Assembly: GCA_001919865.1 (NCBI GenBank)
Contig: MNIR01000083.1
Location: 6,216 to 70,215 of the forward strand
Reading direction: 5' to 3'
Source: Gemmatimonadetes bacterium 13_1_20CM_4_69_16
Lineage (GTDB): Bacteria; Gemmatimonadota; Gemmatimonadetes; Gemmatimonadales; GWC2-71-9
Length of the DNA: 64,000 nt
Numbering within the stretch: the first letter of the stretch is position 1; the number at the start of each line of letters is the position of its first letter. Below the pieces are notes generated by a model. That model searched no databases and was not told the origin of the DNA. It saw only the letters and a program-made list of their open reading frames with translations. Shown one piece after another: positions 2,466 through 61,946 of the stretch. The position numbers and the translations under genes were made by a program.

Positions 2466-3391
2466 TCGTCCACCACCACGACCCGCGGCTTCAAAACCTC
2501 GCCCTCCCACTCCGCCACCGCCACCAGCTGACCGTCCGCGAACAGGGCGACGGGGCTCGTGGCGCTCGGGATGCCTGCCCCCAATCCCGAGCCCCGAAGC
2601 CCGAGCCTCGCGGACACCGGCCGCCCGTGGATCACGGCGGCTCGGCCCGCTTGGTCGAGCTCCCGCCGCGGCAGCTCGGCCACCAGGACCGCCGGATCGC
2701 GCAGATCGGCCGGCGTCACCGCCTCGGGTGCCACGGCGTCGTCGAGTCGAAACGGCCCGACGCGCGTCCGCACCAACGTCGCGAGGTGCGCGCCGCACCC
2801 GAGCTCCTCGCCCAAGTCCCGCGCCAGGCCGCGCAGGTACGTCCCGGCGCTCACCGTGGCACGGAACCCGAGGTCGGGGGGCGCGAAGCTCGTGAGCGCG
2901 AACTCGCCGACCTCGACCCGCCGCGCCGGCAGCGTCACCGCCTCGCCCCGGCGCGCCCGGCGGTACGCCCGCTCGCCCTCCACCTTCACTGCCGAGTAGG
3001 CGGGCGGCCGCTGCTCGTAGGCACCGCGAAACCGCGACACCGCGGCCTCGACCCGCACCCGATCGAGCGATCGCCAGCCGTCCGAGGCGGCGAGCGTCGC
3101 CCCCGTGGCGTCGTCGGTGGACGTGGTCTCACCCAGGCGGATGACACCCTCGTACGCTTTGGCCCAGCCGGCGACGTAGGGCGCGAGCCGGGTGGCGCGT
3201 CCCACGATGACAACCAGCAGCCCCGAGGCAAACGGGTCGAGCGTTCCCAAGTGCCCCACCCGCCGGGTGGCGAGCGCGCGGCGCACCTGATCCACGATGT
3301 CGTGGGAGGTGGGGCCCCGCATCCCGTCCTTCCCCCCCGCCCCCGCCCCCCCCGGCCCTCCCCGCCCCCCCGGCTTCGCGACGAGTACCAC
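2462..3391 (-). CDS. truB: tRNA pseudouridine(55) synthase TruB
   Basis: Track ORF with motifs TSHDIV and HLGTLDPFASGLLVV (catalytic Asp). GTG start. Carries a Gly-rich insert in the N-terminal KPxGxTS motif. Confidence 0.85.
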   Translation of the reverse strand: MVLVAKPGGRGGPGGAGAGGKDGMRGPTSHDIVDQVRRALATRRVGHLGTLDPFASGLLVVIVGRATRLAPYVAGWAKAYEGVIRLGETTSTDDATGATLAASDGWRSLDRVRVEAAVSRFRGAYEQRPPAYSAVKVEGERAYRRARRGEAVTLPARRVEVGEFALTSFAPPDLGFRATVSAGTYLRGLARDLGEELGCGAHLATLVRTRVGPFRLDDAVAPEAVTPADLRDPAVLVAELPRRELDQAGRAAVIHGRPVSARLGLRGSGLGAGIPSATSPVALFADGQLVAVAEWEGEVLKPRVVVVDE

Positions 3392-7009: not shown

Positions 7010-8403
7010 GCCGGCTGGGCGGACGGGTCGCCGCCCGCGCCCGGCTGCGCCGCCGGACCGGCCTCGCCTTGCGCGGCCCCCTCCCCCTCCCTCTCCGCCT
7101 CGTCCTCGCCGCCTTCTTCCATCATCTCGTTGAGGAAGGCCATCAGCTTGTCGGCGAGCTCCGGCGTCATCCCCGCGATCTTGTCCACGTCCTCGCGCTC
7201 CAGATCGAGGATGTCCTGCAGCGTCTTGTGGCCCGCCTGCGCCAGTACGTCCACCAGCTCGACCGGCAGGCCCTTCAGCTCACGCAGCGAGACCTTGGTC
7301 GCGGCCTCCTCCTCGGGGGGGAGCGGCGCGAACAGCGGCCCCTCGCCGCCGCGCTCCAGCCACTCGCGACTCGAGTACAGGTCGATCTTCCAGCCGGTGA
7401 GCTCGGAGGCGAGCCGGACGTTCTGGCCGTTGCGGCCGATGGCGAGCGACAGCTGGTCCTCGTCCACGATCGCTTGGATCGTCTTCGTGTCGGGGTCCGA
7501 GAAAACGCGTGCCACACGCGCGGGGGCGAGGGACAGCTTCGCGAACCGCTCGGGGTCGGGCGACCACGGCACGATGTCGATGCGCTCGCCGCCCAGCTCG
7601 TTCACCACGGCCTGCACGCGCGAGCCCTTGAGGCCCACGCAGGCGCCCACGGGGTCGATCGAATCGTCACGGGAGGAGACCGCGATCTTGGTGCGGCTCC
7701 CCGCCTCGCGGGCCGTGGCCCGGATCTCCACGATTCCCTGCTGGATCTCGGGCACCTCGAGCTTGAACAGCGCCTTCACGAACAGGGGGTCCGCACGCGA
7801 CAGGATGAGGCGCGGCCCCTTGGGGGTTTCCTCGATCCGCTTCAACACCGCGCGGATCGTGTCGCCCTGGTGGAAGTGCTCGCGGTGGTTCTGTTCGCGG
7901 TAGGGGATGATCGCCTCCGCCTCGCGGAACTTCGCGAGCATCACGACGATCTTGCCACGCTCGATCTGCTGCACCTCGCCCGAGAGCAGCTCGCCGACCT
8001 TGTCGGTGAACTCCTCGCGGATCCGGGCCCGCTCGCCTTCGCGCACGCGCTGAATGATGCGCTGCTTCGCCGCCTGCACCGCCGTGCGCCCGAACGCCTC
8101 GAAGGGCACTTCCTCCTCCAGCACGTCGCCGACTTGGAAGTCCGGGTCCTCGAAGCGCGCTTCCTCGAGCGCCACCTGCGAGCCGGGGTCCTCCACGGTC
8201 TCGACCACGGTGCGCAGCACGACGACCCGGATCGTCCCCTTCAGCTCGTCGATGCCGATCTCGGACCGCACGTTGGGGCCGTAGCGCTTCACCAGGGCCG
8301 CGTGCAGTCCGTCCTTCAGCAGGTCGAGCAGCTCCGCGCGCTCCAGCTGCTTCGTGTTGGTCAGCTCACGAATGGCTGATACGACGTCAGTTGTGTTCGT
8401 CAT
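7006..8403 (-). CDS. nusA: transcription termination/antitermination factor NusA
   Basis: 465-aa track ORF with S1 and KH regions (IDPVGACVGLKGSRVQAVVNELGGERIDIV, LAIGRNGQNVRLASELTGWKIDL) and an acidic C-terminal tail. Confidence 0.95.
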   Translation of the reverse strand: MTNTTDVVSAIRELTNTKQLERAELLDLLKDGLHAALVKRYGPNVRSEIGIDELKGTIRVVVLRTVVETVEDPGSQVALEEARFEDPDFQVGDVLEEEVPFEAFGRTAVQAAKQRIIQRVREGERARIREEFTDKVGELLSGEVQQIERGKIVVMLAKFREAEAIIPYREQNHREHFHQGDTIRAVLKRIEETPKGPRLILSRADPLFVKALFKLEVPEIQQGIVEIRATAREAGSRTKIAVSSRDDSIDPVGACVGLKGSRVQAVVNELGGERIDIVPWSPDPERFAKLSLAPARVARVFSDPDTKTIQAIVDEDQLSLAIGRNGQNVRLASELTGWKIDLYSSREWLERGGEGPLFAPLPPEEEAATKVSLRELKGLPVELVDVLAQAGHKTLQDILDLEREDVDKIAGMTPELADKLMAFLNEMMEEGGEDEAEREGEGAAQGEAGPAAQPGAGGDPSAQPA

Positions 8404-8407
8404 CTAT

Positions 8408-8492
8408 GTCGTCTTTCGTTCGCCGTTGTCCGTCGTCCAGCATCCGCGTCGCGTCACATTCCTCGGATCACGGATGACGAACGACGGATGAC
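8408..8492. repeat. inverted arrays of degenerate tandem heptamers in the rimP-nusA spacer
   Basis: Right arm GGATCAC GGATGAC GAACGAC GGATGAC (8465-8492). The left arm GTCGTCTTTCGTTCGCCGTTGTCCGTCGTCC (8408-8438) is its imperfect reverse complement. The spacer is about 26 nt. Confidence 0.6.
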
Positions 8493-8495
8493 GTG

Positions 8496-8954
8496 CTACC
8501 AATCCACCGCCAAACGCGCATCGCGAATCCCGGCGAGCGGCACCGGCCGGGGTGGCCCGCCCTCCGGCGCGAGCACCACCGTCGCCTCGTCGGGCACGGC
8601 GACGATACGCGCGCGCACCCGGCCCAGCCCCGCGACCGTCGCCCGCACTTCCTGGCCCACGAAGCGCACCCAGTGGCGGTGCCAGCGCAGCGGTCGCTCC
8701 AGCCCCGGGCTCGAGACCTCGAGCGCGTAGCGCGACCCCAGCGGCCCGCCCGCGTCGAGCCAGGCTTCCAACGCCCGGCTCGCCATCGCGCAGTCGTCGA
8801 CCGTCACACGCCGCGGCGGCTCGCCGGGCGGCCATTGGATGCGCACTTGAACGAGCGGCCGAGCTTGCGTGCCGCCGACACGGAGGTCGGCCAGTTCGAG
8901 GCCCACCGCAGCCAGCTGGGCCCGAAACGATTCGACGAGACTGTCGGAGAGCAT
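8496..8954 (-). CDS. rimP: ribosome maturation factor RimP
   Basis: 152-aa track ORF upstream of nusA. LEVSSPGLERPL motif and C-terminal Sm-like part. Confidence 0.85.
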   Translation of the reverse strand: MLSDSLVESFRAQLAAVGLELADLRVGGTQARPLVQVRIQWPPGEPPRRVTVDDCAMASRALEAWLDAGGPLGSRYALEVSSPGLERPLRWHRHWVRFVGQEVRATVAGLGRVRARIVAVPDEATVVLAPEGGPPRPVPLAGIRDARLAVDW

Positions 8955-16535: not shown

Positions 16536-16622
16536 CGCGGCTGAAGCCGCGGCTCGGCGCTGCCGCTGCAGCGGCCATGGGCCCGTTTACGGGCAGACGC
16601 CGAGCCGCGAGTTCACTCGCGC
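16536..16622. repeat. palindromic intercistronic element, copy 1 (gatC-gatA spacer)
   Basis: CGCGGCTGAAGCCGCGGCTCGGCGC ... GGCAGACGCCGAGCCGCGAGTTCACTCGCG. Both ends are almost identical to 61315-61391. Internal 12-bp stem CGCGGCTCGGCG/CGCCGAGCCGCG plus two terminal tetraloop hairpins. Confidence 0.75.
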
Positions 16623-33109: not shown

Positions 33110-33574
33110 CTATGGGGGAGTGAGGGGTGGTCGTTGCGTCAGGGAATCGACGATCGCCCGGGCCCGTGCCTCGACCGTGCCCCCCAAGGAGTCGAGCGGC
33201 GCCGACACCGCTGCCACAATGCTCCCGGTCCGGGTGTCGGCCAGGCGGACGTACAGCCAGATCGGGGCGCCGGGCTCGGGGTCACGCTGCGTGAACGACA
33301 GCACATACGCAGTGGCGGAACCGCCGCCTTGCACGGTAGTGCGGACCGTATACCCCCGCCGCCTGAGCCCGCGGCCGATCTCCCGGCTCAGCGAGTCGTC
33401 CCGGCTGACGAGGATGTCGTAGCTCGTGACCGACACGGGAGCGCGGTAGCCGGCAGCGGGGGCACACGAAACGAGAACTGCGAGACACGATGGCAAGACG
33501 GCACGTTGCCCGAATAGCGCGACGCCGAGCGCCACACTGGCAACGTGCCGTCCTGCCGTCGTGTAACGCTTCAC
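33110..33574 (-). CDS. lipoprotein, unknown function
   Basis: 154-aa track ORF with signal and lipobox ...LAVLVSCAP. ATGA-type overlap with the upstream NlpC/P60 gene. Confidence 0.45.
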   Translation of the reverse strand: MKRYTTAGRHVASVALGVALFGQRAVLPSCLAVLVSCAPAAGYRAPVSVTSYDILVSRDDSLSREIGRGLRRRGYTVRTTVQGGGSATAYVLSFTQRDPEPGAPIWLYVRLADTRTGSIVAAVSAPLDSLGGTVEARARAIVDSLTQRPPLTPP

Positions 33575-34551
33575 GGAATCACCCGCCTCACCCCCACCCA
33601 GCGATCGAGCCAGTACCCACCCTCCGGATCCTGGGGGTCGAGGCGGGACAGCTTCACTCCCCTCGTCGAGCTGTGGATGAATTTCAATTCGCCGACGTAC
33701 ATCCCCACATGCGTCACCCCGGAGCCCGGTCGAGCGGAGAAGAGTAGAATGTCGCCCGGGCGGAGCGCATCCACGACAGGCGCGACTTCCGCGCCGGTGT
33801 GGGCCTGATCGCGGCTCATGCGCGGCACACGGACCCCGTGCTGTCCGTACGCATACTGGACGAGCCCCGAACAGTCGAACCCGTTATCCGCGGTTCCGCC
33901 CCAGACGTACGGCGTGCCGAGCGATTCGAGGGCGGTTTGCACGACATCGGCGGCGTTCCCCGTGATGGTGGTGGGAGGAGCCGGGGGCGGCAGGTCGGGT
34001 GGGGCTCCAACCCCGCTCTGCCCTGTTCTCGCGCTCGCTCTCCCCGACGAGAGCGAGATGCCGATTGCGGCACTCACGCCCTTGCGCGCGTCATCCCCCG
34101 GGCGCCAGAAGCCGCGCGGTCCACGGTCCTCCAGCCGGTAGCGCAGCTCGCTCCCCGCAGCGAGCCACGCAAGTGGGCGCCACTCGACTCCTCCCCCGAT
34201 GCTCCATTGGACGGCGAGCTGCTGGTTCGTGATGTCGGTGGACAGGCCGAGGGCGAGGCCGGCGAGAGCGTAGGGTGCCAGGCCGGGGCGCCCGCGCCAC
34301 GCTTGAATCTCGTACCCCAGGCCATAGAAGGCCCGGTGGCGACCCAAAGTATCGTTCACCAGGACCGTGACGCCGAAGCCGTGCGTGAACGCCGCTCCGA
34401 GCGGAGCGCTCGTACGGAACTCGTAGGTCTCTGCGCGATTGCCGTTGTACCACCGGCCCAGGTGGAGTTCCCAGCCACGCCGCTGCGCGGTGAGCGCCCC
34501 GGGCGCGAGCGCGAGCAGCTGGATTACGAGGAGCTCAGTCCGCCGCGGCAA
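33571..34551 (-). CDS. NlpC/P60 peptidoglycan hydrolase with N-terminal beta-barrel-like domain
   Basis: Track ORF 33571..35061 trimmed to the in-frame TTG at 34551 (MPRRTELLVIQLLALAPGALTAQ signal). C-terminus GTPYVWGGTADNGFDCSGLV...GVTHVGMYVG is the NlpC/P60 Cys-His core. The start is uncertain. Confidence 0.65.
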   Translation of the reverse strand: MPRRTELLVIQLLALAPGALTAQRRGWELHLGRWYNGNRAETYEFRTSAPLGAAFTHGFGVTVLVNDTLGRHRAFYGLGYEIQAWRGRPGLAPYALAGLALGLSTDITNQQLAVQWSIGGGVEWRPLAWLAAGSELRYRLEDRGPRGFWRPGDDARKGVSAAIGISLSSGRASARTGQSGVGAPPDLPPPAPPTTITGNAADVVQTALESLGTPYVWGGTADNGFDCSGLVQYAYGQHGVRVPRMSRDQAHTGAEVAPVVDALRPGDILLFSARPGSGVTHVGMYVGELKFIHSSTRGVKLSRLDPQDPEGGYWLDRWVGVRRVIP

Positions 34552-40356: not shown

Positions 40357-41476
40357 CGAGCACGTCCCGATAAAGACCCTCGTAGCGGGGCACGACGCGC
40401 TCCGTGGAGAACTCGGCCGCCCGCGCTACGGCGGCCCGGCGCATGCGCTCGTGGGTCGTGGCATCCTTGAGCAGGGCCACGGCGCGCTCGACCATCTCGT
40501 CCACCCCGCCGACCGGCGCCAGATACCCCGTCTCGCCGTCCACCACCACCTCCGGGAGGCCGCCCTGGCGGGTCGCCACGACGGGGACTCCGCACGCCAT
40601 CGCCTCGAGCGCCGACAACCCGAACGACTCGCTCTCCGACGGCAGCAGGAACAGATCCCCACCTTGCAGCAGCTCGGCGACCCGGTCGACCTTGCCGAGG
40701 AAGCGCACGTCGGCACGCAGCTTCAACCGATGCACCTCCTGCTCGGCCAAGTCCCGCTCGGGCCCGTCACCCGCGAGGACGAGGGTCGCTGGGAGCGCGC
40801 GCCGCACTCCCGCGAACACCTTGATCACATCTGCGATCCGCTTGACCGGACGAAAGTTGGACACGTGGAGCAGGATCTTGTGGTCCGCCGGGGCCAGCGA
40901 GCGGCGGCACGAGCTGTCCGTCGGAGGGTGGAACTCGGCGGCCGAGACGAAGTTGGGAATTACGCGGACGTCGCATCCGGCGCACCCGAAGGCGCGATAG
41001 GTCTCGTCCCGGAGGTACTCCGACACCGCGGTCACGCGGTCGGACTGCTCGATCGAGAACTTGGTGATCGTGAAGTACGACGGGTCTTGGCCGACGAGCG
41101 TGATGTCGGTGCCGTGCAGCGTCGTCACGACTTTGAGGTCGCGCTCGCTCTTGAGCATCTGCTTGGCGAGCCACGCCGTCGCGGCGTGCGGGATCGCATA
41201 ATGTACGTGCATCAGCTGGAGCTCTTCGCGCAGGGCGACCTCGTGCTGCTTCACCGCCAGCGCCAGCGCGTAGGGGGACTGCTCGAACAGCGGATACTCG
41301 GCGGGAACCACTTCGTGGAAAGTGACGCGCTCGGCGAAGCCACCCCGCAGCCGAAACGGGCTGGCGTACGAAATGATGTGGACCTCGTGCCCCCGCCGGC
41401 CGAGCTCTAGCCCCAACTCGGTCGCGACCGCGCCGGAGCCGCCGTAGGTGGGGTAGCAGGTGATGCCGATGCGCAC
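40349..41476 (-). CDS. bshA: GT4 glycosyltransferase, BshA-like (N-acetyl-alpha-D-glucosaminyl L-malate synthase)
   Basis: 375-aa track ORF. The N-terminus MRIGITCYPTYGGSGAVATELGLELGRRGHEVHIISY closely mirrors Bacillus BshA. C-terminal E-x7-E region FGLSALEAMACGVPVV. Confidence 0.7.
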   Translation of the reverse strand: MRIGITCYPTYGGSGAVATELGLELGRRGHEVHIISYASPFRLRGGFAERVTFHEVVPAEYPLFEQSPYALALAVKQHEVALREELQLMHVHYAIPHAATAWLAKQMLKSERDLKVVTTLHGTDITLVGQDPSYFTITKFSIEQSDRVTAVSEYLRDETYRAFGCAGCDVRVIPNFVSAAEFHPPTDSSCRRSLAPADHKILLHVSNFRPVKRIADVIKVFAGVRRALPATLVLAGDGPERDLAEQEVHRLKLRADVRFLGKVDRVAELLQGGDLFLLPSESESFGLSALEAMACGVPVVATRQGGLPEVVVDGETGYLAPVGGVDEMVERAVALLKDATTHERMRRAAVARAAEFSTERVVPRYEGLYRDVLGD

Positions 41477-41484
41477 GGGAGATT

Positions 41485-41621
41485 GTCAGACGTCAGACAT
41501 CAGACGTCAGACTGAACCGAACGCCACCGGGCTGCGATGGTCGCAGCCAGTCCCTCAGCGGGCTCCGTCGCATCGAGTGTCCACACTTCATCTGCCTGAC
41601 GTCTGACGTCTGATGTCTGAC
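41485..41621. repeat. inverted arrays of tandem heptamers at the miaA 3' end
   Basis: GTCAGAC GTCAGAC ATCAGAC GTCAGAC (41485-41512) and GCCTGAC GTCTGAC GTCTGAT GTCTGAC (41594-41621), separated by an 81-nt spacer. Confidence 0.8.
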
Positions 41622-42468
41622 CGCGCAGTTGATTTCGAAACCACGTCTCCTGTCGCTTCGCGTAGCGTCGCGTGGCGGCCAGGACGGCATCCCGCAGGTC
41701 GCGCTCGGCGAGCCGACCTTGCAACATCGCGACCACTTCACGGTATCCTACGCCGTCCAGCCCTGGGGCGTGCGGCGCTACTCCGTCGGCCAGCACGCCG
41801 CGCACCTCCTCTATCAGTCCCCCATCCAGCATGCGATCCACGCGCTGGGCAATGCGCCGCTGCAGCGCGTCGCGCGGCAGCGTGAGATGAATGTACCACG
41901 GCCGCATCACCCCGCTCTCGCGTGCTTCCCGCTGCCACCACGACAGCGACCGGCCCGTGAGCAGCGCCACCTCGATCGCGCGAGCGGCGCGCTGGCGGCC
42001 CCCGCCCGCGAAGCGTCGGTCCAGTCGCGCCGCCCAATGGGCGAGCGGGGCCGCGCCGAGCAACCCGGCCCAGGCGCGGAGCCGCTCGCGGCGCGCGTAA
42101 TCGAGCGGCGGCTCGCGGAACAGACCTTCGGCCAAGGCGCGGATGTAGAACCCGGTTCCCCCGACCACCACGGGCTCGCGCCCCTCCGCGCGCACCCTGG
42201 CGAGCCACCCGCTCGCGTCGCGAGCGAACCGTCCGGCGCTGTAGCGCTCCCCCGGGTCGATCAAGTCGATCCCGAGATGCGGCACCCGGGTGAGCTGGGC
42301 CGGTTCGGGTTTCGCGGTGCCGATATTGAGCCGCCGGTACACCTGACGGGCGTCCGCGCCGATGACGGAGATGGGCTCGAGCGCTGCCCAGGCGACCGCG
42401 ACGGCGGTCTTACCGACGCCCGTAGGGCCGACGAGAACGGGGACCAGGGGGCGGTCAGCTCCGCCCAA
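41500..42468 (-). CDS. miaA: tRNA dimethylallyltransferase
   Basis: 322-aa track ORF. GPTGVGKTAVA, IVGGTGFY, RRYAKRQETWFRN. Confidence 0.85.
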   Translation of the reverse strand: MGGADRPLVPVLVGPTGVGKTAVAVAWAALEPISVIGADARQVYRRLNIGTAKPEPAQLTRVPHLGIDLIDPGERYSAGRFARDASGWLARVRAEGREPVVVGGTGFYIRALAEGLFREPPLDYARRERLRAWAGLLGAAPLAHWAARLDRRFAGGGRQRAARAIEVALLTGRSLSWWQREARESGVMRPWYIHLTLPRDALQRRIAQRVDRMLDGGLIEEVRGVLADGVAPHAPGLDGVGYREVVAMLQGRLAERDLRDAVLAATRRYAKRQETWFRNQLRGQTSDVRRQADEVWTLDATEPAEGLAATIAARWRSVQSDV

Positions 42469-44137
42469 ATCTCCGCTCCAGCTCGCCCTTCGGCAGCTGC
42501 ACGATGGTGGGCCGCCCGTGCACGTCGTGCGCGGGGAGCGACGCCGTGAGCAGCCGGCCCACGAGGTCGCGCATCTCCGCCAGCTCGAGGTGCTGTCCCG
42601 CCTTGATCGCCGCCCGACAGGCGAACATCGCTCCGAAGCGCTCGAGCCGGTTCGCGAGGCCCCCCCCCCCGGACCGGCCGCCCGCGAGGTCCGCCACGAG
42701 CTCCTGGAGGCAGCGCGCGGCGTCGAAGCGCGGATGCGGGTTGGGCGCCGTATGCACCACCACGGCCCGCCCGGAGAACGGCTCGATCTCGTATCCCACT
42801 CGCCCCAACAGCTCGCGGTGGGAGTCGATCGCGTCCAGCTCGGGCGGCGCGAACTGGAGCGTGAGGGGCAGGAGCAGGCGCTGGGCCGGGGCGCCGTCGC
42901 CCGTGAGCTGGCGCATCACTGTTTCGTACAGCACCCGCTCGTGCGCCGAGTGTTGGTCCACGATCGCTATCCCCTGGGCGGTCTGGAACAGGATGTAGGT
43001 GTCGAACACTTGGAGCAGAGATGGGGCTCGGGGCTCGGGACTCGGGGGTCGGGAGTCCGCCGCAAATAGGTCGAGGGGCACAGCAACGCCGTTCCAGGAC
43101 ACCCGATCCCCGAGCCCCGAGTCCCCAGCCCCAAGCGGCGCAGCCGCGACCAGCGGTCCCAGGGCCCGCCGCACCGCCTCCTCCACGACCTTTTCCACGA
43201 AGAACTTCTCGCGGAACCGTACCTCGAGCTTCGCCGGATGGACGTTCACGTCCACGGCGTCGCCCGGCAGGTCGAGAAACAGGACCAGCGACGGCCGGTC
43301 GCCGGGCGCGAGGGTCGATCGGTAGCCGGCTTCCGCTGCGCGTACGATGAACGGATCGCGGATCGGGCGACCGCGCACGAACACGTAGCCCTTGCGGCCC
43401 GCCGGCCTCGCCTGCGCGGGGCGTTGCGCGAAGCCGCGCACTTCGAGCGGCCCCTCGCAATGGGCGACCGGGAGCAGGGTGTCCACGACCTCGCTGCCCC
43501 AGAGGGCGGCCAACCGCTCGAGCGGCCCATCGGCGGGTGGCACGTCGAGCAGGGCGCGGTCGTCGCTCGTGAGCGTGAACGCGATGTCGGGACGGGTCAG
43601 GGCAAGGACGCTGAGCGCTTCGACGACCGCGCGAGTCTCCGTCGCCTGGGCGCGCAAGAACTTCCGCCGGGCGGGCGTATTGAAGAACAACGCGCGCACC
43701 GTCACCGTCGTCCCGCGCTGCCGCACCGCATCCTCCACCGCCTCACGCTTTCCCCCCACGACGCGGATCCGCGTGCCGGAACGGCCGTCGGGGGAGGTCT
43801 CGAGCTCGAAGCGCGCCACGGAGGCGATCGCCGGGAGCGCCTCGCCCCGGAAACCGAACGTCGCTACTCCGATCAAGTCCGTGGCATCGCGGATCTTGCT
43901 CGTGGCGTGGCGCGACAGCGCGAGCTCGGCATCCACGCGGCTCATCCCCTCGCCGTCGTCGCTCACGCGGATGAGTGTCTTGCCGCCGTCTTCCATCTCG
44001 ACCCGGATGGCCCGGGCGCCGGCGTCGAGCGCGTTCTCGACCAGCTCCTTCACGACCGAGGCTGGCCGCTCGACCACCTCACCCGCCGCGATCTGATCGG
44101 CGACCTGAGGCGCGAGCACCGCGACCTTCGCCGTCAC
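42455..44137 (-). CDS. mutL: DNA mismatch repair protein MutL
   Basis: Track ORF 42455..44341 trimmed to the GTG at 44137 (GTGA overlap). QIAAGEVVERPASVVKELVENALDAG, DDGEGM, C-terminal DQHSAHERVLYE. Confidence 0.9.
   Translation of the reverse strand: MTAKVAVLAPQVADQIAAGEVVERPASVVKELVENALDAGARAIRVEMEDGGKTLIRVSDDGEGMSRVDAELALSRHATSKIRDATDLIGVATFGFRGEALPAIASVARFELETSPDGRSGTRIRVVGGKREAVEDAVRQRGTTVTVRALFFNTPARRKFLRAQATETRAVVEALSVLALTRPDIAFTLTSDDRALLDVPPADGPLERLAALWGSEVVDTLLPVAHCEGPLEVRGFAQRPAQARPAGRKGYVFVRGRPIRDPFIVRAAEAGYRSTLAPGDRPSLVLFLDLPGDAVDVNVHPAKLEVRFREKFFVEKVVEEAVRRALGPLVAAAPLGAGDSGLGDRVSWNGVAVPLDLFAADSRPPSPEPRAPSLLQVFDTYILFQTAQGIAIVDQHSAHERVLYETVMRQLTGDGAPAQRLLLPLTLQFAPPELDAIDSHRELLGRVGYEIEPFSGRAVVVHTAPNPHPRFDAARCLQELVADLAGGRSGGGGLANRLERFGAMFACRAAIKAGQHLELAEMRDLVGRLLTASLPAHDVHGRPTIVQLPKGELERRFGRS
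43023..43132. repeat. inverted arrays of tandem heptamers inside the mutL linker
   Basis: GGGGCTC GGGGCTC GGGACTC GGGGGTC GGGAGTC (43023-43057) and GACACCC GATCCCC GAGCCCC GAGTCCC CAGCCCC (43098-43132), with a 40-nt spacer. Confidence 0.8.
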
Positions 44138-46479
44138 AGCGGCAGCACTTCCGTCGCGAGGACCCAGCCGTGCACGCCATCCTGACGCCTCACCTCGAGC
44201 CAGGCGCCCGTGCGGCGTTGGATCACGAGCGCCGCGCCTGCCTCGAGCGTGCTGCCGGCGCTCGCGGCGCCATACGGCGCGACGCGCACCGCGGTCCCGG
44301 CGCTCGCCACCACCGCGACGGGGCGGACGCGTTGCCGCCACTCACGCAAGGCGAGTCCGGCGCAGCCCGCGGTGACCAGACCGAGCAGGATCACCACGAT
44401 CCCCCGCCGGCGGCTCAGCACCGCGAGCCACAGGACCACCCATCCGGCGGCCCCGGCCAGCGCCCACTCGGCGGGCGTGGCAACGCCGGTGGCGAGCAGC
44501 GGGTCGCTCGCCGCATCGGGCGGCGGCAGGAACTGCCGCGCCCGCCGCACCAGGGGCGCGCGCGGCGCCAACCGGGCGGCGCGCGTCCACGCGGCCATCG
44601 CCTTGCCGTCCGCCCCGGCGCGATACAGCGTGGCGCCGAGGTTGTACCAGTGGGCCGCGACGCGCGGCTGCGCCGCGGCGCGAGCCGCGAAGGAATCCGC
44701 CGCGGCGCGCAGTGCCCCGACCTCGTACAGCGCCTCGGCGCTCGGCGCTTGTGCCGCGACGGCTCGCGGCGTGACGAGCGCCAGGAGACCCAGCGCCACC
44801 AGCAGCCGGCGACGCCGGCTCGCGCGCGGCTCCGCCCCCAGCGCCTTGAGCACCTGTGTGAGCTCGGCCGACAGCTCGACCGCATCGCCCAGCCCTTGCG
44901 GCCCGTAGCGGGCAGCGCGCAGCCGATCGCGCAGCCGCATCACGTGATCCGCCACGGCACTCTCTACGCCCGCGGCGCGCAGTGCGCGGGCGAGGCCATC
45001 GCCGTCGCGTGCCACGGGATCGGGCACGTGGCTCGCCAGCAGCCCGAGGAACTCCCGTTCCAGCCGCCCCAGGCGCGACAGCGGCGGCGCGTCGGGCTCC
45101 TCGGTGGAGGCAGCGCCCCAGCGCGCAGCCCGACGCCGCCGCAGCCACACGAGCAGCGGGGGCCCGACCAGCAGCGCCGCCCACCCCAGGGGAAACAGCT
45201 GGGCGGCGATCGCGTCCACCCAGGCTTCGCCCCTCGACCGGTCGAGGGGCGGCAGCGGGCGCGCCGCCCTGGGCTCCGCACCCTGAGCCACGGCGAGCGG
45301 GCGCGGCGCCGCGCGAGCGGCCGTGTAGGCGCCGGCCGTGAGATCGTAGTAGGTGTAACGCACCTCGGGCAGTAGGAAGGAGCCCGCGGAGTCCGCCACG
45401 ACGAGGTAGTGGAACGTTTTGCTCCCCGCCATCCTGCCGCCACGCGGCTCGACCCGCACGGTCGCCTCCCCCGGATAGGCACGGAACCCGACGGGCCAGT
45501 GGATCACGGGCTCCGGCCAGAGGGCCACGTTGCCCACGCCCGAGACCGTGGCAGTCGCGTCCAACGGCTCCCCCACCCGAGCTTCGGTCGGCTGGACGGC
45601 CACCTCGAGCGCGAGCTCCTGGGCCGTCACGCGCCGATCGTCGGCGCTGCGGTCGGCGCCGGGCAGCGGCAGCACGGTGACGAGCACTGAGTCGCTCTTC
45701 AGGAAGTAGCGCTCTTCGCGGCTGAAGAACGAGAACGTCACGGGGACGCCGTACTCGACCGTCGCGGTCGGGATCGTCACCCGGCCCGCCACCAGCGGAA
45801 ACACGACCTGGTGAGCGACGTACAGATCCATCCAGCCGCCCCGCACGAGCCGCGAGGCGACCACGTCACTGGGGGCCGCGCCGGGATACGACCACACGCC
45901 CTCGGGAGTCTGCAACGTGAGAATCGGGGCCCGGCGCAATCGCGTGCGCAGCGAGCGGGGGAACCACGCCGCGGCGAGCACGTCGAGCTGCGCGCCCGCC
46001 AGCACTGTGTCGCTCGGGAGGATCACCGCCAGGACGACGCGATCGTTACGCGCCGGCGGTGCGGCGGCGGCGATCAGCCGGCGCGCCGGCGGGCTCAGCG
46101 CCGCGGCGACCCCGGTCGCCGCGCTGTCGACCGCGATTGCGATCGCTTCGGTGGCCACGGTCCGCGCAGCTTGACGCGCCCGCACCGGGCCGATCACGAG
46201 AGTCCCCGCCCGCTCGGCCCGTAACCGCAGCTCGCGGGTCGTCGTCCGGGTCGGCCCGAGCGTCCCTTCGAGCGAGACTTCGGTGACCTCGCGGGAGCCC
46301 ACGATCGCAAACCCGGTCAGCGCGGGCAGCGTGAGGCCGACCGGCTCCGCCGAGCGGGTGCGCGCCCGGACGGTGAGGGTCAGCTCCTCGCCGGTGGCGA
46401 GCCGGACGCGATCCACCCGCGCCTCCAGGTTCAGCGGCGGTCCTTGCAGGGCGACGAGCAACCAGAGGGCGCCCCTCAC
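44134..46479 (-). CDS. BatD-like protein fused to a BatE-like TPR/TM/SH3 module
   Basis: 781-aa track ORF. N-terminal BatD-type repeated beta domains, a TM segment, TPR-like AHWYNLGATLYRAGADGKAMAAW, a TM segment, and a C-terminal SH3b-like AWLEVRRQDGVHGWV. Confidence 0.65.
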   Translation of the reverse strand: MRGALWLLVALQGPPLNLEARVDRVRLATGEELTLTVRARTRSAEPVGLTLPALTGFAIVGSREVTEVSLEGTLGPTRTTTRELRLRAERAGTLVIGPVRARQAARTVATEAIAIAVDSAATGVAAALSPPARRLIAAAAPPARNDRVVLAVILPSDTVLAGAQLDVLAAAWFPRSLRTRLRRAPILTLQTPEGVWSYPGAAPSDVVASRLVRGGWMDLYVAHQVVFPLVAGRVTIPTATVEYGVPVTFSFFSREERYFLKSDSVLVTVLPLPGADRSADDRRVTAQELALEVAVQPTEARVGEPLDATATVSGVGNVALWPEPVIHWPVGFRAYPGEATVRVEPRGGRMAGSKTFHYLVVADSAGSFLLPEVRYTYYDLTAGAYTAARAAPRPLAVAQGAEPRAARPLPPLDRSRGEAWVDAIAAQLFPLGWAALLVGPPLLVWLRRRRAARWGAASTEEPDAPPLSRLGRLEREFLGLLASHVPDPVARDGDGLARALRAAGVESAVADHVMRLRDRLRAARYGPQGLGDAVELSAELTQVLKALGAEPRASRRRRLLVALGLLALVTPRAVAAQAPSAEALYEVGALRAAADSFAARAAAQPRVAAHWYNLGATLYRAGADGKAMAAWTRAARLAPRAPLVRRARQFLPPPDAASDPLLATGVATPAEWALAGAAGWVVLWLAVLSRRRGIVVILLGLVTAGCAGLALREWRQRVRPVAVVASAGTAVRVAPYGAASAGSTLEAGAALVIQRRTGAWLEVRRQDGVHGWVLATEVLPL

Positions 46480-61297: not shown

Positions 61298-61314
61298 GCG
61301 GCCGCTCCTCGGTC

Positions 61315-61391
61315 CGCGGCTGAAGCCGCGACTCGGCGCCTACGGCTGAAGCCGCTTGAGCGGCAGGCGCCGAGCCGCGAGTTCACTCGCG
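61315..61391. repeat. palindromic intercistronic element, copy 2 (pyrR-pyrB spacer)
   Basis: CGCGGCTGAAGCCGCGACTCGGCGC ... GGCAGGCGCCGAGCCGCGAGTTCACTCGCG. Same ends and same orientation as 16536-16622, with a different central part. Confidence 0.75.
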
Positions 61392-61394
61392 GAT

Positions 61395-61946
61395 TCACGA
61401 GCGACCCCTCGCCACCAGCTCCACCAGATCCTTCCCATCGATCTCCTCTACCAGCACGTCCACGCGCTCCCCGCTGTTCACCTTCACCTGCTTGCCGACA
61501 ATGTCCGGTTGGATCGGCAGCTCGCGACCGCCGCGGTCGACGAGCACGCACAGCGAAATCCGTTCGGGGCGCCCAAAGTCCGCGAGCTCGTCGAGCGCGG
61601 CCCGAACGGTGCGGCCGGTGTACAGCACGTCGTCCACGATCACCACGTGCTTGCCGGTGAGATCGCCGGGGATGCGGGTCTCTCCGATGACCGGCTTCGG
61701 GCCCACGGTCTGGAGGTCGTCGCGATACAGGGTGATGTCGAGGGCGCCGCGGGGGACGACCACGCCCTCGTTCGTCTCGATCTGCTTGGCGATCCGTTCG
61801 GCGAGCTCCACGCCGCGCCGCTGGATGCCGATCAGGACCAGCTGCTCGGTCCCGTGCGCCAGCTCGAGCACCTCGACCGCCATACGCTGAAGCGCCCGCG
61901 ACAAGGCACGGGCGTCCAGGATGGTCGTGCGCTCGGGCCGGCTCAT
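61395..61946 (-). CDS. pyrR: bifunctional pyr operon regulator / uracil phosphoribosyltransferase PyrR
   Basis: Track ORF 61395..62243 trimmed to the ATG at 61946. LIGIQRRGV, PRPP loop VVIVDDVLYTGRTVRAAL. Confidence 0.9.
   Translation of the reverse strand: MSRPERTTILDARALSRALQRMAVEVLELAHGTEQLVLIGIQRRGVELAERIAKQIETNEGVVVPRGALDITLYRDDLQTVGPKPVIGETRIPGDLTGKHVVIVDDVLYTGRTVRAALDELADFGRPERISLCVLVDRGGRELPIQPDIVGKQVKVNSGERVDVLVEEIDGKDLVELVARGRS

Follow-up and report, generated by a model that had tools for sequence, protein, structure and literature searches.

A pair of inverted heptamer arrays is translated in frame in the linker of the DNA-repair protein MutL of Gemmatimonadetes bacterium 13_1_20CM_4_69_16, a soil bacterium of the order Gemmatimonadales, and its two arms can fold into a long hairpin. 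The pair lies in the 64,000-nucleotide (nt) stretch analysed here (contig MNIR01000083.1, positions 6,216 to 70,215; hereafter the window, whose own numbering is used below) and was first noticed in an initial annotation made from these letters. The finding is real, and stronger than that annotation could know. The position of the pair is conserved across a family-level clade while its unit sequence turns over, the two arms evolve by concerted and compensatory changes under a reading-frame filter, and a second such pair is translated in the tail of MiaA. The arm order, with the G-rich array first, reaches in this sample contigs of very different G+C content. These observations, including the full in-frame translation of an inverted heptamer pair in the MutL linker and the MiaA tail, are new. 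Our preferred reading, with a probability of about 0.5, is a self-homogenising inverted heptamer microsatellite pair, with homogenisation at the DNA level, that has no dedicated function and is tolerated and trapped in a disordered linker.

The longest mutL open reading frame (ORF; 42455–44341, minus strand) was identified as MutL by Pfam, with the N-terminal modules and DNA_mis_repair ending at residue 394 and MutL_C starting at residue 443. MutL here is of the endonuclease type and contains the motif DQHSAHERVLYE. The hairpin is located between DNA_mis_repair and MutL_C. On the sense strand, the 5′ arm (43097–43133, minus strand) is a G-rich heptamer array, UGGGGCU GGGGACU CGGGGCU CGGGGAU CGGGUGU CC as RNA, which encodes LGAGDSGLGDRVS. 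The spacer, or loop, of 38 nt (43059–43096, minus strand) encodes WNGVAVPLDLFAA, and the 3′ arm (43022–43058, minus strand), a C-rich heptamer array that directly precedes the MutL C-terminal domain, encodes DSRPPSPEPRAPS. Both arms and the loop are translated in frame, and the linker reads GAGDSGLGDRVSWNGVAVPLDLFAADSRPPSPEPRAPS, then LLQVFDTYILFQ...DQHSAHERV. The in-frame position in the interdomain linker, already proposed in the initial annotation, agrees with the Pfam boundaries and the translation; disorder of the linker is assigned from the Pfam domain boundaries and general knowledge of MutL.

A repeat search of the window found arms of 37 nt each, 86% complementary and 38 nt apart. The five-plus-five heptamer units that had been described at 43023–43057 and 43098–43132, as 35-nt arms 40 nt apart, read exactly as listed and are the same feature. 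Tandem Repeats Finder (TRF) located period-7 arrays at 43023–43053 (4.4 copies) and 43102–43136 (5.0 copies), and our own period-7 scan agreed. Exactly four heptamer arrays occur in the window, namely the mutL pair and the miaA pair, compared with 0.2 expected in shuffled sequences. A candidate third pair with CGGATGA units at 8375–8505 was not significant (z = -1.7). The G-rich arm of the mutL hairpin is 5′ whichever strand is read. The sense RNA had a predicted folding energy of -81 kcal/mol, whereas dinucleotide shuffles gave -57.5 ± 3.7 (z = -6.4; none of 200 shuffles was as good), which bears out the potential stem noted initially, and the hairpin folded as DNA gave z = -5.2. It is far above chance. 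A comparison of the hairpin with Rfam 15 returned only microRNA-precursor models, at 25–33 bits against thresholds of 83–90, and the scan of the whole window gave no match at gathering score. The promoter and terminator scan found no signal at the mutL arms. An intrinsic terminator was rejected: there is no terminator-like site at the arms, the loop is 38 nt long, and the feature is inside an ORF.

To compare the arms across orthologues, a fixed structure was imposed on a MAFFT alignment with the arms in register, columns 27–33 being paired with 195–201 and columns 55–82 with 167–194. Under this structure 71% of cells paired, compared with 34–50% when the 3′ partner was slid by 1–3 columns. 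Co-variation of the arms, which the initial annotation had put forward as a test for maintained complementarity, is present, with 29 of 35 column pairs changed on both sides. There were 257 doubly changed cells. Shuffles gave 133 ± 12, with none of 500 reaching the observed number, but this control overstates significance because the sequences are related; the slid controls, which do not, gave 52–78. RNAalifold on all 52 linkers yielded no consensus structure, with gaps and hairpin-less outgroups interfering. Complementarity might also be explained by ordinary Gly/Ser/Pro codon usage, as the initial annotation had pointed out. Synonymous codons were therefore drawn from the family's own mutL usage with each peptide kept. 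The window pairs 31 of 35 positions versus 22.6 ± 2.1 after this resampling (0 of 1000), and all sequences together have 1138 paired positions versus 951 ± 14, about 13 standard deviations above the null, so codon usage for this peptide does not by itself explain the complementarity. The peptide alone already yields about 65% pairing in the resampled sequences. Synonymous sites contribute to arm pairing. Folding energy was uninformative in comparison with codon-resampled controls, because resampling raises G+C at third codon positions (GC3) and stabilises everything; arm-pairing counts were used instead.

A scan of GTDB species genomes gave 51 Gemmatimonadales mutL loci with 71–85% protein identity. 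All 51 are in frame, and their linkers are 44–60 amino acids (aa) long, that of the window being 47 aa. When each linker was folded, most of the 51 had a hairpin at the same linker position, with stems of 20–49 pairs and z down to -7.5. The idea that orthologous linkers would lack complementarity is thus not supported, and most orthologues keep paired arms. The units differ between lineages: GGGGCUC or GGGACUC in the window, L001, L002, L004, L042, L046 and L048; GGUGUCG or GGUGUCA in L005, L012 and L029; GGUGUCU or GGUGCCU in L009, L021 and L023; CGGCUAU in L019 and L031; GGGGCCU in L016, L022 and L037; GGGAGUC in L020 and L051; and GGGUAUC in L013 and L027. At least nine unit types occur at the mutL site and at least nine at the miaA site. 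The unit number is the same in close relatives (L009/L021/L023 and L019/L031). Linker indels are of 3, 6 or 21 nt, and the large ones, 21 nt, equal three units or seven codons.

Loss of the mutL stem with retention of the linker was found in L010, L011, L024, L025, L035 and L038–L045. Only the C-rich array is left in L011, L024 and L035, in which 21 nt of the 5′ arm are missing. The most distant group, L038–L045, has a 49-aa linker and no mutL stem; since the window linker is 47 aa long, no indel marks an insertion in the window lineage. The loop encodes a motif, W..G...PL[ED]LF, that is common to most of the 51 orthologues, and therefore the arms bracket native sequence. The mutL hairpin is old and position-conserved, neither lineage-specific nor a recent insertion, and in our preferred reading it is vertically inherited. 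The idea of an inserted element at this spot, raised in the initial annotation, is not supported.

The window mutL is mosaic, its linker module having a different affinity from its flanks. In the comparison, which spans window positions about 42520–43160, the flanks are closest to L006, L003 and L007 (84–86% identity in the mutL N-terminal domain and 84–87% in the glycosyltransferase), and the module of about 200 nt (gene positions ~590 to 800) is of the L001-group type. Its identity is 71–85% to the L001 group versus 38–74% to L006, L003 and L007. This suggests that a short recombination tract may have carried the module, or that its turnover was rapid in the sister lineage. Locus L046 (DASYRW010000035.1) is labelled 'Thermoplasmatota archaeon'; its MutL is 79% identical to that of the window, with the same hairpins and the same gene order, and it is very likely a mis-binned Gemmatimonadales contig.

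The initial annotation had noted the same architecture in miaA and excluded simple transposition of one sequence. Our data agree with both points: the miaA pair is real, and the two pairs of the window share no sequence. The miaA gene (tRNA isopentenyltransferase; 41500–42468, minus strand) overlaps the end of mutL by 14 nt. Its hairpin has four GTCAGAC units and z = -6.0. The 5′ arm (GUCAGAC units; 41591–41621, minus strand) is read in frame after the IPPT domain and ahead of the conserved C-terminal segment of MiaA, VWTLDATE...RW, which is encoded by the 75-nt spacer (41516–41590, minus strand). One unit of the 3′ arm (GUCUGAC units; 41485–41515, minus strand) forms the miaA stop codon at 41500–41502, and this arm extends into the 23-nt spacer that precedes the start codon of the glycosyltransferase gene, at 41476. 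Nearly all orthologues have the miaA hairpin, 3′ of the conserved MiaA motif RRYAKRQETWFRNQL. The position is kept and the units change (GTCAGAC, GTCAGCC, GGGGACG, GGGGAAA, GGGATGC, GGGAAAC, GGGGTCA and others). The loop of 70–90 nt codes for the conserved VWTLDATE..P..LA..I..RW, and the stop codon is supplied by the 3′ arm, which runs into a short spacer before the next gene. The hairpin is present in L041 and L043–L045, which are without the mutL stem, and L038 also scores as a pair. L011 and L050 have no miaA arms, and their MiaA tails are about 10–15 aa shorter.

Of the 96 heptamer arrays found in 334 kb of Gemmatimonadales loci, 86 are at the mutL and miaA sites, and seven more are at the junction of the mutL stop and the miaA start. 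Solo CCTGACA arrays at this junction (L017:4676–4703, L022:4663–4690, L037:4676–4706 and L049:879–909) are translated as the MiaA N-terminus PDTRHLTP. A complete inserted junction hairpin of about 125 nt, with GGAATGC units and its own loop, is found in L008 (2458–2570) and L046 (4196–4310), where mutL and miaA overlap in other genomes. The mutL/miaA junction of the window contains no array. The units are unrelated between sites of one genome, which speaks against a trans-acting partner with sequence specificity. The hairpin of the miaA tail and the arrays at the junction look like further cases of the same process in the same operon.

Within a genome, unit identity was 0.66 in the same arm and also 0.66 between non-pairing units of opposite arms; at the same position across genomes it was 0.56–0.60. 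Units in both arms are therefore more alike within a genome than orthologous units are, which indicates concerted evolution. Homogenisation can work against pairing: in L042 the arms have been homogenised to different variants (5′ arm all GGGACT, 3′ arm all GGGGCT), giving four A·C mismatches. The GG at unit positions 2–3 is 92–97% conserved in both arms. The heptamer period itself is conserved, though a stem needs no period. Mismatches under the fixed mutL structure were 128 of the G·U type versus 135 of the A·C type. A strand-neutral arm finder gave 22 G·U versus 24 A·C in mutL and 19 versus 32 in miaA, 41 versus 56 in total. An excess of G·U (95 versus 21) in minimum-free-energy stems was rejected as an artefact of the folding algorithm, as the two strand-neutral counts have no excess. 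A constraint on RNA would favour G·U, and the equal frequency of the two types argues against a constraint on the sense-strand RNA. The reading frame is also visible in the arrays. A perfect array would hold an in-frame TGA, TAG or TAA in 9 of 36 3′ arms, and T is changed to C exactly there, for example in CCTGACA CCCGACA CCTGACA; in seven of the nine lineages the base paired with it in the 5′ arm is still A. Array dynamics at the DNA level, filtered by translation, fit these observations better than does selection on a helix of the sense-strand RNA.

Inverted heptamer arrays form a widespread class. This tempers the initial view that such a stem in a repair gene is unexpected: the stem stands, and similar arrays occur widely elsewhere (PMC4692102) and are carried in frame by other proteins. 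The GGAATGC unit in three copies occurred in 29 IMG/VR contigs (L060–L088), which contain many arrays with different units, inverted pairs among them. A scan of viral contigs for three copies of GTCAGAC gave no match. The pattern CCNGACACCNGACACCNGACACC was found in at least 120 metagenome contigs (L089–L208) with G+C contents from 33% to 73%, none of the matches listed being in mutL or miaA, and contigs of such different G+C content suggest diverse taxa. Among the 120 matches listed, which are GGTGTCA-type arrays of 36 nt in the median, 46 are accompanied by an inverted partner no more than 200 nt away, and the spacers range from 3 to about 200 nt. The spacers of 23 GGTGTCA pairs are unrelated between contigs and consist of local sequence, so that the contigs have nothing but the arms in common. 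Two clear in-frame GGTGTCA/TGACACC cases in unrelated proteins of other organisms are also among these matches (L094:2656–2754 and L164:1461–1566). One of the two lies in the linker between two ATPase domains of a protein that reads as BadF/BcrA-type, with the peptide VSGVRYQVSG...SPDTRHLTPDT; in the other, KsgA/RsmA-like as read from the sequence, the arms flank the conserved V.GDAL..D strand. Their peptides (VSGVR.QVSG ... TPDTRHLTP) equal those of some MutL linkers. Recurrent peptide 'motifs' of this type are dictated by DNA repeats.

These pairs have a polarity. The G-rich arm came first in 27 pairs and the C-rich arm in two (n = 30 pairs); for the GGTGTCA unit alone, 29 were G-first and none C-first among the matches listed, and all three Gemmatimonadales sites (mutL, miaA and junction) are G-first. 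Since either strand of an inverted repeat gives the same reading, the polarity is a genuine feature of the pairs. It is not explained by the thermodynamics of a hairpin or cruciform and points to a directional generating or filtering mechanism. Candidates are avoidance of Rho and directional synthesis at 3′ ends.

In our preferred reading, the pair can form a stem of some 35 bp, either in DNA that is single-stranded or in an RNA of either strand. Units within an arm would be homogenised by replication slippage or unequal exchange, and units of opposite arms by intramolecular template switching, that is, quasipalindrome correction. Translation would act as a filter only, keeping the units stop-free and selecting T to C where a perfect array gives an in-frame stop. 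The length of the MutL linker presumably cannot shrink much, and on this basis the arrays would be trapped: the linker sequence is free to vary, and the repeats are not removed. There is no sign of a dedicated role in MutL expression, and the effects probably do not go beyond a very stable local structure in the mutL–miaA transcript and in single-stranded DNA.

Several points weigh against a microsatellite pair of this kind. Two hairpins with stable positions across a family-level clade, together with a third site, all in one operon of 2.5 kb, are unusual for neutral repeats. Synonymous-site constraint and compensatory changes are also expected from selection on structure, and some of the stop-avoiding changes are compensated (in L016 and L022, and by unit reading also in L019 and L031). 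The relatedness of the sequences, which inflates the shuffle control but not the slide control, reduces the weight of the covariation. Template switching is deduced from the pattern and was not observed. The G-first polarity implies a directional factor, either RNA or 5′-to-3′ synthesis, that the model leaves unspecified, and neither homogenisation nor a functional RNA stem accounts for the polarity or for three sites being clustered in a single operon.

A functional RNA stem-loop in the mutL–miaA transcript, maintained by selection for pairing, is a serious rival, which we nevertheless consider unlikely. Such a stem might cause a translational pause at the domain boundary, serve as an RNase processing or stabilising element, or mask a C-rich Rho-loading site. 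It would account for the conservation of position over the clade at two or three sites of one operon, for the strong covariation, the synonymous-site constraint and the very high predicted stability, and a G-first order on either transcribed strand would pair the C-rich arm once it is made. The mismatch counts do not favour it, G·U-type mismatches being no commoner than A·C-type ones, and the heptamer period and unit homogenisation are conserved although a stem has no need of them. Arms can be homogenised to different variants at some expense of pairing, and most stop-avoiding changes are uncompensated, both of which count against selection for the stem, as do the several lineages that lost it but kept the linker. 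It matches no Rfam family, and no signal of a promoter or terminator was found for it.

The polarity and the wide occurrence of the arrays raise the idea of a cross-phylum polar family, with the G-rich array always first and the two arrays bracketing any local sequence, made by dedicated, directional and sequence-preferring DNA synthesis instead of ordinary slippage. We regard this as rather improbable. Such synthesis could, for instance, be extension with stutter from two converging 3′ ends, repair by snap-back or the work of a templated polymerase. If this were true, arrays would colonise coding sequence in frame and persist for a long time, and mutL and miaA would be the first orthologous series showing their birth, turnover and decay.

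The mutL and miaA pairs may instead be small mobile elements, one inserted in frame in each gene in the manner of a MITE (a miniature transposable element with inverted repeats), a repetitive extragenic palindromic (REP) doublet known as REPIN, or a Rickettsia palindromic element. They are hairpin-shaped and in frame with the coding sequence around them, identical units turn up in unrelated contigs, the linker module of the window is cassette-like (L001-type amid flanks like those of L006, L003 and L007), and the complete junction hairpin of about 125 nt in L008 and L046 stands where other genomes have overlapping genes. That junction is the only place with presence or absence of a whole element, however, and at the mutL site there is no indel relative to the hairpin-less orthologues. 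The loops encode native, conserved protein segments, and hence the two arms sit at separate positions. The mutL and miaA copies of the window have no sequence in common, the spacers of the GGTGTCA pairs listed are unrelated, and no target-site duplication or transposase is evident. We therefore consider mobile elements very unlikely.

If the feature were a G-quadruplex or i-motif element, what counts would be the conserved, periodic GG(G) tracts, with the hairpin as a secondary or competing fold. The conserved GG in both arms is in line with this, as is the 5′ arm of the window, which carries a G3+ N2-4 motif with GGGG-N2-4 five times; Xanthomonas and Nostoc heptamers form G-quadruplexes in vitro, with four units preferred (PMC4692102). 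However, many lineages have only GG runs or none (GGTGTCT and CGGCTAT; GTCAGAC and GTCAGCC at miaA), and the variable positions co-vary between the arms, which a G-quadruplex does not need. Judged from the sequences, the chance that such an element is the basis of the feature seems slight.

A contingency locus has even less in its favour, and we see very little chance of it. Gain or loss of one 7-nt unit would shift the frame of mutL, 7 not being a multiple of 3, and the array is upstream of the essential C-terminal domain, so that a reversible mutator switch could be imagined. Repeat-length changes are known in the mutL of E. coli and Salmonella. Phase variation by heptanucleotide coding repeats is reported in work on phase-variable NeuO and on simple sequence repeats in Haemophilus influenzae. 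Against a switch, all 51 orthologues are in frame with indels that are multiples of 3 or of 21 nt, imperfect units lower slippage, and close relatives have equal unit numbers. Finally, a by-product of a low-complexity peptide, Gly-rich then Pro-rich, with GGN and CCN codons being reverse complements, is next to negligible and, as a sufficient explanation, is refuted by the covariation and codon resampling: peptide-preserving resampling still pairs about 65% of positions and folding energy is little below that of codon-resampled controls (a comparison confounded by GC3), but the pairing of the window exceeds all 1000 resamplings and the overall excess is about 13 standard deviations, lineage-specific units co-vary, miaA units have no Gly/Pro character, and L038–L045 linkers of the same length have no stem.

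At this locus a single inverted pair within an essential repair gene can be compared across about 50 orthologues, and there is a second pair in miaA. Bacterial heptanucleotide repeats are little studied, although they are reported to be the commonest long microsatellites. Our study shows that such repeats can be translated and kept for very long periods, that both arms evolve in concert, and that the reading frame marks the arrays with stop-avoiding variants every third unit and with 21-nt indels. It is also a warning for annotation, since Gly/Pro-rich linkers (...GFQVSG...TPDTRHLTP...) can reflect DNA repeats and not protein function. If the stem does affect the expression of MutL or MiaA, this would have a bearing on the control of mutation rate.

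Some other observations were made in the window. The mutL ORF has an Arg/Gly-rich 5′ extension (44126–44341, minus strand) of about 70 codons beyond the conserved start (VAVLAPQ...), which overlaps the 3′ end of the upstream BatD-like gene (44134–46479). The ORF is probably over-extended at its 5′ end by a spurious high-GC stretch, the conserved protein start being near 44125–44134. The loop peptide VPLDLF (43062–43079, minus strand) contains the PL(E/D)LF motif common to most of the 51 orthologues, which resembles the beta-clamp-binding consensus, QL[SD]LF. The loop may contain a second clamp-binding site, which would explain the conservation of the spacer. The canonical MutL C-terminal-domain motif QRLLLP is also present in the window MutL. 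A very stable long hairpin at 33470–33580 (41-nt arms, 8-nt gap, -65 kcal/mol, z = -10 versus shuffles) is not made up of heptamers and matches nothing in Rfam. At 3328–3371 there is a C-rich, CCCCGCCCC-like tract, about 44 nt long, with TRF periods 1, 9, 10 and 15. Two multi-palindromic repeats of about 90 nt, CGCGGCTGAAGCCGCG...CGCCGAGCCGCGAGTTCACTCGCG, at 16536–16621 and 61300–61406, are 82% identical; they look like dispersed repeats of the REP or MITE type and are unrelated to the heptamer arrays.

Literature searches on Gemmatimonadetes or on short tandemly repeated repetitive (STRR) sequences with hairpins found no description of the mutL/miaA feature, and searches with heptamer unit strings found nothing relevant. 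Several known systems are comparable in part. In E. coli, quasipalindrome correction copies one arm of an imperfect inverted repeat onto the other by intramolecular template switching; it is known for short quasipalindromes in reporters, not for heptamer arrays or over evolutionary time. Cyanobacterial STRR heptamers are comparable heptanucleotide repeats. Rickettsia palindromic elements are palindromic repeats found in frame in protein genes, present in many copies with a conserved sequence and either there or missing as whole insertions. As in that system, hairpin-forming DNA is translated here in tolerant parts of housekeeping proteins, but the mutL arrays conserve the period alone, their loop belongs to the native coding sequence, and the mutL site has no insertion polymorphism. 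REP sequences and REPINs, with their REP-associated tyrosine transposases (RAYTs; PMC3116915, PMC2817692), are also formed of two inverted short repeats that make a long hairpin and are dispersed in genomes. REPINs differ in having a fixed sequence of 20–40 nt, very many copies and an extragenic location.

Heptamers have been relayed as the commonest class of long simple-sequence repeat, with polymerase slippage as the proposed cause (PMC4679880). TAACTGA heptamer direct repeats are common to Beggiatoaceae, Cyanobacteria and Bacteroidetes (MacGregor 2015, PMC4679880). They likewise form short arrays of 7-nt units (2–6 copies), with one unit in distant phyla and no known transfer mechanism. They differ from the arrays described here in being nearly all direct and upstream of start codons, with one inverted case reported and no in-frame linker-coding pairs.

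The nearest likeness is to the heptamer repeats of Xanthomonas and Nostoc (Rehm et al. 2015, PMC4692102). In Xanthomonas the GGGAATC repeats, with four units preferred, form 70–75 'convergent' pairs per genome that are capable of a stem-loop, and they are mostly intergenic, 7–11% overlapping ORFs. The repeats of Xanthomonas and those of Nostoc (GGGGA(C/T)T) form G-quadruplexes in vitro, again with a preference for four units. The mutL pair shares with these pairs the 7-nt tandem unit, an array of about four or five units (4.4 and 5.0 copies in the window), and the convergent, G-first arrangement on opposite strands that is rich in G tracts and can form a stem-loop, with arms 38 nt apart in the window. 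It differs from them in several respects. The Rehm pairs are reported to have one consensus unit, GGGNATC, per genome, whereas the window has GGGGCTC at mutL and GTCAGAC at miaA. They are predominantly intergenic, whereas the mutL arms and loop are all translated within mutL. Unlike them, the mutL pair is conserved in position across a family-level clade, and its arms have changed in a compensatory and concerted manner.

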